Below, in pieces: positions 47,283 through 49,715 of a stretch of 64,000 bases of DNA. The first letter of the stretch is position 1; each line of letters begins with the position of its first letter. The DNA comes from Escherichia coli (GTDB lineage Bacteria; Pseudomonadota; Gammaproteobacteria; Enterobacterales; Enterobacteriaceae). The stretch is from assembly GCF_009931435.1 (NCBI RefSeq), contig NZ_CP043414.1; one strand, written 5' to 3'. The notes under the pieces are model-generated. The model searched no databases and was not told the DNA's origin. It worked only from the letters and a program-made list of their open reading frames with translations. The translations under genes were made by a program, and so were the position numbers.

Positions 47283-48764
47283 TTAGTGTTTCTTATGGCT
47301 CGGTGGACTCAGTTTTGGCGCGCTTCCTTGCCTCATGTGTTCTGGTGGCATTGAAGGTGTGAGATTTATGCTTCTATTAACTTCCGGCTGTTCCTGATTA
47401 GGACGGCTTGGTAAACGTTTGATTTCATCAGGTGTTAATTTATAGTCACCATTGTTAAATTTGGTACGTTTTTCAAACTCCGAGCGTGGAACATTGACAC
47501 CCAGCACTTCATCATAGACATAGTTCTCTGCGATACGCTTATCATGGTCAGCATCAATGGTATCGGGTTTCCTTCTGGCCCATACAAATCTCTCTTTGAA
47601 GAAGCCCACCACAAGCAGTGTGAAACGCTTAAACAAACCATTTTGTCGTGGCTTAGTCTGTTTCCTACTTCTCATCGGAGCACGGTTTATCGCTCTGGTG
47701 TTTCGAGAAGAAGGGGTTTCCAGTTTAGTGGATGCAGTTGGTTCAGGAACAATCAGAACGGGAGATTTCTTCCCTGAAATACTTACTTTACTGACCTTAT
47801 TAGGATTACGGTATGATTTTGCTGCTGGTCTTCTGCTTGTAGTTGCTGTTGCCACAATCGGCTGTTGTTCTACTGTTACCGGGTCGTCTGGAAGAACAAT
47901 CTCTTCGGGGTCAGGAAGAATTGTTATCTCAAAGCTTCTGACATCAACAACGATCTCCAGTGGTAGCTCACTGAATGTGGTGTAGACCTTCTTGGCCTCT
48001 TCAATTTGATGATCGCGTTGAGCTTGTTCAACAGATCGCTGTTCCTGAGACTCTTTGTCATTCCATTTAGCACGATGAACACGTTGCATTGCCGGGCGGT
48101 TAGTTTCCGTTGCTTTGGCAAGCCAGAACGCTTTTTCTTCAGCGCTGAATGCTTCTTCTGCCTGAGCAAGGGCATCAGCACATTGAGTTCTGAGAGAACG
48201 GTGATCGATACGTTCTTCACTGCCTGCAGTCTCAAGGTAGCTGTTTGACATCGTGGCCCATGACTCACGCCACTGAACAACCATCTTCTTATCATTCCAG
48301 CTTCTGTCTTTTTTACCGAAGCCTTCGGGACCGATAGTTTTCAGGGTTAACATGACGTGAGCATGGGGATTCTTACCATCTAAATCGTGGAATGCGATAT
48401 CAGCAATCATTCCTTTATCAGCAAAGTTCTTCTGGCAGTATTCGGCAACTAATTTTTTCTTGTCATCATTGCTGAGTTCTACGGGAATAGCGACATCAAA
48501 ATAACGGGCTGTTTGACCATTGTTCTGGCGTTCCACTCTTTCAACTTCATTCCAGAGTGCTGACGAGCTTTCAACAATATGAGCAGGTGCGGAAACAGGG
48601 GCTAATATAATATGACCATGAAGATCTGTTCTGTGGCTGAAATCAAATGTCTCGCCAATGCGATCATCTTTAATACGTGTACGGGCATGGTAGGCAGCTT
48701 TCGCAACAGAAGTCATGCCTTCGCTTCGTTTCACAATTTTAAAATCCAGATGAAAAATCGCCAT
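47283..48764 (-). CDS. mobA: MobA/MobL-family (MobQ-type) conjugative relaxase
   Basis: N-terminus MAIFHLDFKIVKRSEG...SVAKAAYHARTRI (catalytic Tyr region) and HAHVMLT histidine triad, closely resembling RSF1010 MobA relaxase domain. Confidence 0.8.
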   Translation of the reverse strand: MAIFHLDFKIVKRSEGMTSVAKAAYHARTRIKDDRIGETFDFSHRTDLHGHIILAPVSAPAHIVESSSALWNEVERVERQNNGQTARYFDVAIPVELSNDDKKKLVAEYCQKNFADKGMIADIAFHDLDGKNPHAHVMLTLKTIGPEGFGKKDRSWNDKKMVVQWRESWATMSNSYLETAGSEERIDHRSLRTQCADALAQAEEAFSAEEKAFWLAKATETNRPAMQRVHRAKWNDKESQEQRSVEQAQRDHQIEEAKKVYTTFSELPLEIVVDVRSFEITILPDPEEIVLPDDPVTVEQQPIVATATTSRRPAAKSYRNPNKVSKVSISGKKSPVLIVPEPTASTKLETPSSRNTRAINRAPMRSRKQTKPRQNGLFKRFTLLVVGFFKERFVWARRKPDTIDADHDKRIAENYVYDEVLGVNVPRSEFEKRTKFNNGDYKLTPDEIKRLPSRPNQEQPEVNRSINLTPSMPPEHMRQGSAPKLSPPSHKKH

Positions 48765-49409
48765 TAAAAATATAACCTCAAATAAAAGTAATGCTGTTAG
48801 TTTTTCGTAAGAAAAACTTCGGGGTTGACGTTGACCTTGGTTTTACTTTTAGCCTGCGGCAGCAACCGTCGGTAGACCCCACACACTGCGTAGCAGTGTA
48901 TAGGTGGGCATTGTCTTTAAGAAAATAAGCCAATGTAAAATGCCCCTCTTATTAATTAATACGAAATATATGTATGGTTGTAAAATAATACGCCGGAATA
49001 AGCGGCGCAAACTGGATTAAAGGTGTAGGTTTCACGTCCACAGAACAAAAAGAGTAAAGAAAAGGCCCGTAAGGGCAAAAGAAATATTAATTATTCCCGC
49101 CGTAAGGCGGGATAGCTAAATTTGATGGAAAAAAACCAATAAAACAGAGAGTGTTATGTGTTGCACAATTCACAGGTTGAGATTGGAAAATAGAGTTTAA
49201 AATTGACAGGTGAAAATAAAAGCACAAATGCGCAAAAATAAGTAACGCGGAGAGTGCCAGATGTTTTTGGTTAGTGAATACTATCATATGCGTTGCACAT
49301 ATTTATAAAGAAATGTATCAGAATCATTCTCTCTGACAAAACAGACTAAATTTGACGTTATTTATCTTTGTGATAATTAAAATAAGATATAATAATAGAA
49401 GGAGGTAGT
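48765..49409. other. Candidate oriT region between divergent mobA-like and mobC-like genes
   Basis: Perfect inverted repeat ACACTGC-GTA-GCAGTGT at 48883-48899; two GTAA-loop hairpins at 49064-49076 and 49095-49112; position typical of MobQ oriT; nic site not identified. Confidence 0.35.
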
Positions 49410-49715
49410 ATGGATAATGAAAGTAAAAGACCAAGAACAGAAAAAACATTAAAGCAAAAGGTTGCTTTTGCTCAGCTTGAACTTAATCGTCTTAAGTCTC
49501 TGGAAAAATCAGAGCGAAAGAAAGTTGAAACAAGACTCAAGATTATACTTGGTGCGGAAGTGGCTAAGGCTATGAATTGTAGTGTCGAACAGGTGGATAA
49601 AGAGCTTGTTATGGGGATTTTGCTTTCAGCATCTGACCTGAATGATATTGAAAAAATAACATATATAAAAGCAGGCAGTAAGTTTCTCGCGCAAATGGAG
49701 GGAAGACAAAAATAA
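49410..49715 (+). CDS. MobC-like relaxosome accessory protein
   Basis: 101 aa; segment TRLKIILGAEVAKAMNCS resembles RSF1010 MobC (RRKVLVGAMILAKVNSS) as recalled; divergent from relaxase. Confidence 0.5.
   Translation: MDNESKRPRTEKTLKQKVAFAQLELNRLKSLEKSERKKVETRLKIILGAEVAKAMNCSVEQVDKELVMGILLSASDLNDIEKITYIKAGSKFLAQMEGRQK

Follow-up and report, generated by a model that had tools for sequence, protein, structure and literature searches.

The window analyzed here (the whole 64-kb stretch of DNA) comes from the chromosome of Escherichia coli, as its right flank, with smpB, grpE and recN, matches E. coli genomes at 99% identity. Between ypjA and the transfer-messenger RNA (tmRNA) gene ssrA there is a low-GC island. 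Within this island we identified a mobilization module consisting of a gene for a MobQ-family relaxase (mobQ), a divergent gene for a small relaxosome accessory protein of the TraD family (traD) and, in the 645-bp gap between them (48765-49409), a predicted origin of transfer (oriT). Coordinates of these and of the associated features are given in Table 1.

The mobQ product is, judged by its sequence, a MobQ-family relaxase. It scores 249.7 bits against the NCBIfam model NF041496 (MobQ; curated cut-off 200) over aa 1-194, and Pfam MobA_MobL (PF03389) matches aa 19-208 at 6.5e-54. Among sequences in the PDB it matches NES (4HT4, 4e-25) and MobA of RSF1010 (2NS6, 1e-9). The catalytic Tyr25 and the triad His126/His134/His136 (HxDx6NPHxH) align with both 2NS6 and 4HT4, and Y25, H126, N132, P133, H134 and H136 are invariant among 31 sequences, which include ColE9-J MobA and RSF1010 MobA. 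The MobA/MobL relaxase, with its catalytic tyrosine and histidine triad, that an earlier reading had recognized from the letters and open reading frames (ORFs) of the window (the sequence-only reading) is thus borne out. The match to TIGR02768 (Ti TraA) reaches 172 bits against a cut-off of 590 and covers aa 1-224 alone, which is short of a full-length TraA. Over 194 aa the relaxase domain is 45% identical to that of ColE9-J MobA, a pairwise match that makes it a candidate member of the MOBQ4 clade. The C-terminal ~285 aa contain no recognized domain and are in part of low complexity. We found no primase or MobB family match in NCBIfam, Pfam shows the MobA_MobL domain alone, and ORFs nested in mobQ are unsupported. 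The ratio of non-synonymous to synonymous substitution rates (dN/dS) of the N-terminal domain is 0.05-0.15, indicating purifying selection.

Within the gap, three separate perfect stems reach 7 bp or more (loops of 3-8 nt). As one of them is nested, the count came to four, against approximately 0.37 expected from 2000 shuffles or Markov resamples (P ~0.005). The perfect 7-bp inverted repeat to which the sequence-only reading had drawn attention is present, and its covariation and the nic-like motif that adjoins it identify it as the hairpin of the predicted oriT. We compared this region with those of five diverged E. coli islands, island copies from Yersinia and Klebsiella, three MOBQ plasmids of 3.4-4 kb, and 18 further loci, the latter being those with usable upstream sequence among 20 found by scanning one genome per species (relaxases 49-83% identical). 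Exactly one copy of the 9-mer GTGGGCATT occurs in every locus with usable upstream sequence (29 of 29), located 78-192 nt upstream of the relaxase ATG and directly preceded by an inverted repeat in all 29. The 9-mer occurs once in the 64-kb window.

At least six variants of the inverted repeat were found (ACACTGC-GTA-GCAGTGT, as in the window; ACGCTCAC-GAA-GTGAGTGT; ACACTCG-GAA-CGAGTGT; ACATTGC-GAA-GCAATGT; ACGTCG-CTTG-CGACGT; and GCATTA...TAATGC), with pairing kept in all of them. In a helix test on an alignment of 30 sequences, 97.1% of the cells were paired and five of the six inverted-repeat pairs had changed on both sides; none of 500 shuffles reached the observed values, and slid controls paired at 25-48%. 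The outer helix that encloses the repeat also covaries, being CGCAC/GTGCG in ColE9-J. Between islands whose synonymous sites are saturated, the core of the predicted oriT is nearly invariant.

The nic-region motif forms a graded series: TAAGTGCGCCCT in RSF1010 (whose features we read from an IncQ1 plasmid record found with the 2NS6 sequence), TAAGTGCGCACT in ColE9-J, TAAGTGGGCATT in the small plasmids and TAGGTGGGCATT in the islands. Agreement with the MOBQ core is 11 of 12 positions in ColE9-J, 9 of 12 in the plasmid relatives and 8 of 12 in the window (48901-48912). TAAGTGCGCCCT is the MOBQ nic consensus as quoted in PMC3832669, and on the strength of this series we conclude that GTGGGCATT is a diverged form of it; comparison of the gap with known MobQ oriT sequences has therefore yielded a nic core, although a diverged one. 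Because the architecture is common to RSF1010 and ColE9-J, and because the oriT of MOBQ4 plasmids of the ColE9-J and pIGWZ12 type was mapped experimentally to the same gap, between mobA and mobC (PMC6856555), we place the putative core oriT at 48849-48912. We predict that the + strand is nicked inside GGGCATT or just 3' of it. Co-evolution of the two main hairpin variants with relaxase specificity was also considered and was rejected, as the variants do not track relaxase sequence.

The traD product matches Pfam TraD (PF06412, a small relaxosome protein of Ti plasmids) at 1.5e-10 and is homologous to the ColE9-J protein named MobC (MOBQ4; BLASTP 3e-6). By these matches it is formally a member of the TraD family, equivalent to the MOBQ4 'MobC'. 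The sequence-only reading had likened it to RSF1010 MobC, for which Pfam gives no match. We initially rejected that label, and reversed the decision because direct comparisons with the IncQ1/RSF1010 protein indicated modest homology (BLASTP 2e-6 over 45 aa; hhalign probability 85%, E 6e-6). The resemblance thus stands at this modest level, whereas the formal family is TraD. The motif ETRxK(I/V)xxGA is common to the 101-aa protein, ColE9-J MobC and IncQ1 MobC. With a dN/dS of about 0.15-0.24, traD is also under purifying selection.

Table 1. Features of the mobilization module and of the island around it (positions in the window).
Feature	Position	Strand	Remarks
ypjA	32735-37396		left neighbor of the low-GC island
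Low-GC island	between ypjA and ssrA		
mobQ, MobQ-family relaxase gene	47283-48764	-	493 aa; domain aa 1-208 (nt 48141-48764)
Third GTAA hairpin	48799-48818		AGTTTTTC-GTAA-GAAAAACT; presumed mobQ leader; missing from the sequence-only reading
Tandem repeat	48824-48835		GTTGAC GTTGAC; follows hairpin 48799-48818
Putative oriT core	48849-48912	+	block TTAGCCTGCGGCAGCAACCGTCGGTAGA, two-tier helix, nic-region motif
Outer helix	48878-48882 / 48904-48908		CCCAC / GTGGG; encloses inner repeat; internal loop ATAG
Inner inverted repeat	48883-48899		ACACTGC-GTA-GCAGTGT; perfect, 7 bp
Nic-region motif	48904-48912		GTGGGCATT; directly 3' of inverted repeat
Alternative candidate mobQ promoter	48939-48910		from promoter scan
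Island-specific noncoding block	~48913-49340	+	~430 nt; downstream of nic; holds hairpins A and B
Conserved sub-blocks of the block			TGTGTTGCACAATTCACAGGTT, AAAATAAGTAACGCGGAGAGT, GTTAGTGA, ATG(C/T)GTTGCA
Candidate mobQ promoter	48984-48979 / 48961-48956	-	TTTACA-17-TATTAA; reads through oriT into mobQ
Terminator-like hairpin	48989-49009	-	CGCCG/CGGCG, T-rich tail; just upstream of candidate mobQ promoter
Hairpin A	49065-49076	+	GCCC-GTAA-GGGC; 4-bp stem
Hairpin B	49095-49112	+	TCCCGCC-GTAA-GGCGGGA
Candidate traD promoter	49210-49239	+	GTGAAA-18-AAAAAT; consensus match only
traD, TraD-family relaxosome accessory gene	49410-49715	+	101 aa; ribosome-binding site AGGAGG, 49400-49405
pilS, PilS-type type IVb pilin gene	50107-50670	+	downstream of traD; Pfam PilS 1.8e-28
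pilV, PilV-like minor pilin/adhesin gene	50723-52186	+	Shufflon_N 6.8e-12, C-terminal end of constant region
P4-type integrase gene	55625-56854	-	adjoins ssrA; NCBIfam PRK09692 450.8 bits, cut-off 434
ssrA, tmRNA gene	57019-57381	-	marks right end of island

The closest relatives of the module appear to be the MOBQ4-type plasmids and small TraD-carrying plasmids, not IncQ plasmids. The MOBQ4 plasmids ColE9-J and pIGWZ12 (PMC6856555) likewise have a divergent mobA and small 'mobC' with oriT between them, and beside the 45% identity of the relaxase domains, the ColE9-J oriT has the same architecture as that of the window (AGCCCCGCAGGGCGCAC, inverted repeat, ATAAGTGCGCACTT). They differ in being small, autonomous replicons (Rep_3 or ColE2) with a 178-bp gap, and in having no 430-nt noncoding block, pilin genes or integrase. 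The closest plasmid relaxases (48-57% identical over the domain) are those of small MOBQ plasmids of 3.4-4.2 kb from Enterobacter, Klebsiella and Citrobacter (for example pPb204001 and p2_045523), which have an annotated TraD. These plasmids share an identical GTGGGCATT, the covarying hairpin and the layout mobQ, oriT, (hypothetical), traD, but in them oriT is separated from traD by one or two additional small ORFs, and the island-specific block is missing. In RSF1010/R1162 (IncQ1, MOBQ1), mobA, an inverted repeat (GAA loop) with TAAGTGCGCCCT, and mobC follow in the same order and on the same relative strands, in agreement with the RSF1010-like layout proposed in the sequence-only reading. Unlike its RSF1010 counterpart, the island relaxase is not fused to a RepB' primase, mobB was not found, and the protein resembles NES and MOBQ4 far more than it does MobA (4e-25 versus 1e-9). 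The Ti DNA-processing (Dtr) region (traA, oriT, traCDG) is similar in its TraD-family accessory protein, in the 172-bit match to the TraA_Ti N-terminus and in its divergent arrangement around oriT, whereas the island has neither the TraA helicase domain nor the TraG coupling protein.

The island contains the complete gene set of EARL/ROD21-like islands, namely a tyrosine integrase, a MobA/MobL relaxase, TraD, a type IV pilin and a pilus-related protein. The conserved EARL set has been described as integrase/recombination directionality factor (RDF), MobA/MobL relaxase, TraD, type IV pilin and pilus-related protein (PMC6035254, PMC10763509). EARL/ROD21-like islands have the same backbone (P4-type integrase, MOBQ relaxase, TraD, pilin and pilus-related protein) with variable defense or virulence cargo. 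The EARL description gives an Asn-tRNA gene as the insertion site, with direct repeats on either side, whereas the island studied here abuts ssrA and has a Lamassu system as its cargo. When the left side was searched for direct repeats of the ssrA 3' end (37400-38450 compared with 56855-57080), none of 12 nt or more was present, the longest common word being 10 nt. Genes for a type IV secretion system or its coupling protein are absent from the island ORFs and from the annotations of related islands. Because an integrase, a relaxase, an accessory protein and a predicted oriT of its own are present and a coupling protein and secretion system are not, the island should be an integrative mobilizable element. 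We consider it highly probable that the module is the Dtr module of an EARL/ROD21-like integrative mobilizable element inserted at ssrA of E. coli.

Among 5426 complete E. coli genomes, 803 (~15%) contain the module, with every copy chromosomal, and it is also found in many Enterobacterales. The intergenic region is 92-97% identical to that of many E. coli islands, CFT073 among them. In strain WL297, the module is part of a 22-kb island at tRNA-Ser, together with an integrase, RepL, H-NS homologs, a pilin, PilV and defense genes. The EARL family and its relaxase/TraD pair have already been published; oriT was not delimited in those papers, though both proteins are named there (PMC6035254, PMC10763509), and the EARL literature consulted uses the term oriT no more than once, in a generic sense. 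New here are a predicted oriT delimited with the support of covariation, the link to MOBQ4 oriT and helpers, and an unexplained noncoding block. A 2026 preprint groups intergenic regions upstream of relaxases, from E. coli and other species, as "oriT-comprising regions".

Given the features described above, we propose that the P4-type integrase would excise the island, after which the TraD/MobC-like protein and the MobQ relaxase would assemble at oriT. The relaxase would recognize the two-tier hairpin, CCCAC/GTGGG around ACACTGC-GTA-GCAGTGT, together with its single-stranded 3' tail, and Tyr25 would cut the + strand within or just after GGGCATT, with His126, His134 and His136 coordinating a metal. 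The residues and the motif are found in the window, whereas the chemistry and the exact nick are extrapolated from MobA and NES. A conjugative plasmid in the same cell would then take over the relaxase-bound + strand with its own coupling protein and type IV secretion system, since the island has neither. Given that RSF1010 has the same orientation, transfer would proceed 5' to 3', with traD, pilS, pilV, Lamassu and int as the first genes to enter and mobQ as the last. Accessory proteins of the TraD/MobC type autoregulate in Ti and RSF1010, and divergent promoters flanking or overlapping oriT would permit the same here.

The helper plasmid would be of the MPF_I type (IncI, IncL/M) or IncP; by analogy, these are the likeliest helpers. 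MPF_I plasmids (R64drd11, pCTX-M3) and RP4 are the most effective helpers of MOBQ4 plasmids, and F-type plasmids are poor ones (PMC6856555). IncI-type helpers are suggested by this helper range, by the PilS- and PilV-like genes of the island and by a DotA/TraY gene in a related island at ssrA. The PilV-like protein is ~47% identical to PilV of IncI plasmids over ~70 aa (aa 338-412), and pilus assembly genes are absent from the island. Mobilization of the island in trans, as put forward in the sequence-only reading, is plausible. MOBQ4 relaxases have a preference for acting in cis.

Separately, we note that the nearest plasmid relatives of the pilin (~47%) reside on plasmids of 31-54 kb typed as non-mobilizable. 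At the same ssrA site, E. coli E500002 (L002) has a related island with the left part of the window island, RepL included; this island also contains (L002 32201-34858) the DotA/TraY-family gene, a reverse transcriptase and a kinase and TPR pair, TraY being an IncI-type (MPF_I) component.

Several observations weigh against this interpretation. The window motif agrees with the MOBQ consensus core at just 8 of 12 positions. Hairpin type does not correspond to relaxase sequence: relaxases are about as similar across the two types as they are inside each type, and the types are not told apart by any alignment column. The PilV similarity to IncI is confined to ~70 aa, and the helper assignment is by analogy. 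In ROD21, the subject of the single experiment on a family member, deletion of the relaxase homolog SEN1980 left transfer unchanged, at ~1e-8 and dependent on the F-like pSLT (PMC3976249). In view of this result, mobilization of the island is no more than a prediction. As F-type helpers mobilize MOBQ4 plasmids poorly (PMC6856555), the ROD21 assay may have lacked a suitable helper.

The ROD21 result, in which pSLT was needed and loss of the mobA homolog had no effect, would also be expected if the module were a conserved relic, its genes intact but natural transfer taking place by Hfr-like conduction or through a helper relaxase acting elsewhere. Consistent with decay, traD is frameshifted in WL297 and the relaxases of two other loci (L027 and L030) are truncated. 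However, the dN/dS values of both genes (0.05-0.15 for the relaxase domain and ~0.15-0.24 for traD), the near-invariant oriT, and compensatory hairpin changes across genera argue for a working module, and the poor performance of F-type helpers with MOBQ4 plasmids (PMC6856555) bears on the assay itself. We regard the relic explanation as improbable. Alternatively, the relaxase and hairpin might serve mainly as rolling-circle initiator and origin of the excised island and not as a transfer system, given that HUH relaxases are related to rolling-circle Rep proteins, that the island has a repL by synteny (39754-40311), and that the 430-nt hairpin block could hold a single-strand origin. The MobQ equivalog score above its curated cut-off and the motif, a variant of MOBQ nic, argue against this, as does the use of the same region as oriT by homologous plasmids with separate Rep_3 or ColE2 replicons (PMC6856555), making this alternative very improbable. 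That the inverted repeat is merely an operator for divergent mobQ and traD promoters, with the nick elsewhere, for instance at hairpins A and B, gains something from the nearby promoter candidates and from the autoregulation known of such accessory proteins, but is scarcely credible given a stem that changes freely in sequence but stays paired (better explained by a hairpin than by a sequence-specific operator), an adjoining invariant 9-mer that aligns with the MOBQ nic consensus, and the absence of hairpins A and B from the small plasmids and from two islands.

If the module is indeed the Dtr module of a mobilizable EARL island, it would let an island carrying Lamassu borrow the transfer machinery of a conjugative plasmid. 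EARL islands, whose cargo includes anti-phage and virulence genes, are found in ~15% of complete E. coli genomes and also in epidemic lineages, Klebsiella pneumoniae ST258 being one. How they spread has never been established; the predicted oriT and the helper prediction make the question directly testable by mating. The helper prediction also offers an explanation for why the ROD21 assay, with an F-like helper, saw no dependence on the relaxase.

Candidate promoters for both genes were identified. At the position homologous to the candidate mobQ promoter, 18 of 26 aligned islands have TTCACA-17-TATTAT, which is a consensus match only. A promoter-like site directed toward traD occupies the same alignment column in 20 of 26 islands, mostly as GTGAAA-18-TAAAAT. 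Hairpins A and B are positioned between the minus- and plus-strand candidates. WL297, F3 and Yersinia retain the stem of the terminator-like hairpin, though its loops differ; other island lineages lack it. The third GTAA hairpin is kept in islands, and in strain F3 its outer pair has changed from A-T to C-G.

The region downstream of nic is occupied by the island-specific noncoding block. It can be aligned between genera (Escherichia, Yersinia, Klebsiella, Serratia, Xenorhabdus and others) despite saturation of synonymous sites in the genes on either side. Frequent indels of 1-2 nt in these alignments make a coding function unlikely, and an Rfam search of the gap (E up to 10) returned noise only and no RNA family. 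We looked for the block on conjugative plasmids, as a shared single-strand initiation (ssi) or leading element, and in the plasmid collection it was found only with island copies. The sequence ATG(T/C)GTTGCAC is present in two direct copies within it, at ~49157 and ~49289.

In most islands nic is directly followed by a hairpin, CTCC-TAAA-GGAG within CATTG...CAATG, which has been lost in the lineage of the window. In most island lineages the 3' arm of this hairpin (AGCTAAAAATAACGACA) is also complementary to a sequence ~358 nt farther downstream, where the conserved block ends; the 17-nt complementary pairs are located at 6184-6200 and 6560-6576 of locus L003 and at 5386-5402 and 5760-5776 of locus L013. 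A single-strand promoter resembling Frpo was considered for the window and rejected, as the window has no long-range inverted repeats and the post-nic hairpin that forms part of the pair in other lineages is missing.

The two GTAA hairpins that the sequence-only reading had included in the mobilization region are real and conserved; they do not belong to the core oriT but to the island-only block. Hairpins A and B share CCGTAAGG, in copies 33 bp apart, and are kept in 22 of 24 aligned islands, the other two lacking them. The loop of hairpin A is GTAA, GCAA or GAAA, and that of the nearly invariant hairpin B is GTAA, GCGA, GTGA or GTA; the loops are thereby either GNRA-like or GNA. Their sequences are too invariant for a covariation test to be informative, with a single compensatory variant, GTCC-GAA-GGAC, in hairpin A. 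The small plasmids (relaxases 48-57% identical) lack both hairpins, which by this comparison lie outside the oriT core common to plasmids. The hairpins might, for example, form structures in the transferred single strand, belong to a leader or small RNA, or serve as protein-binding palindromes. Transcription of the hairpins is possible because some lineages have further plus-strand promoter candidates upstream.

We speculate on two linked possibilities, which we consider jointly to be rather unlikely. The block may represent a new leading-region element, working in the recipient as single-stranded DNA that primes complementary-strand synthesis or serves as a single-strand promoter; it would then be neither a relaxosome site nor an RNA. 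Its hairpins have C-G-closed GNA/GNRA loops and lie on the predicted transferred strand. In addition, EARL islands may be dedicated parasites of IncI-type (MPF_I) plasmids, with a MOBQ4-like relaxosome and their own PilS and PilV tip adhesin. If this is true, island PilS and PilV on the thin-pilus machinery of the helper would redirect mating to recipients chosen by the island.

The remainder of the island includes several further genes. A RepL-like gene (39754-40311, - strand) is named by synteny with the annotations of related islands, and the excised island may replicate; this ORF had no match in NCBIfam, PADLOC or PHROG searches. The Lamassu system (52247-55079, - strand) is located between pilV and the integrase gene, with scores of 744.8 bits for LmuB and 456.5 bits for LmuA. 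Directly downstream of mobQ (46088-47204, - strand) are two uncharacterized ORFs of 164 and 191 aa, a candidate defense pair for which we found no PADLOC or NCBIfam match and only weak PHROG matches of unknown function. In other islands this slot is occupied by ApeA, a HamA and helicase pair, a radical-SAM pair, or TIR and TPR proteins. Elsewhere in the window, the segments at 21294-21370 (- strand) and 29605-29680 (+ strand) comprise an Rfam naRNA4 match (71.1 bits) and a tRNA called Met(CAT) by ARAGORN, which corresponds to an annotated tRNA-Ile at the syntenic position in E. coli E500002.

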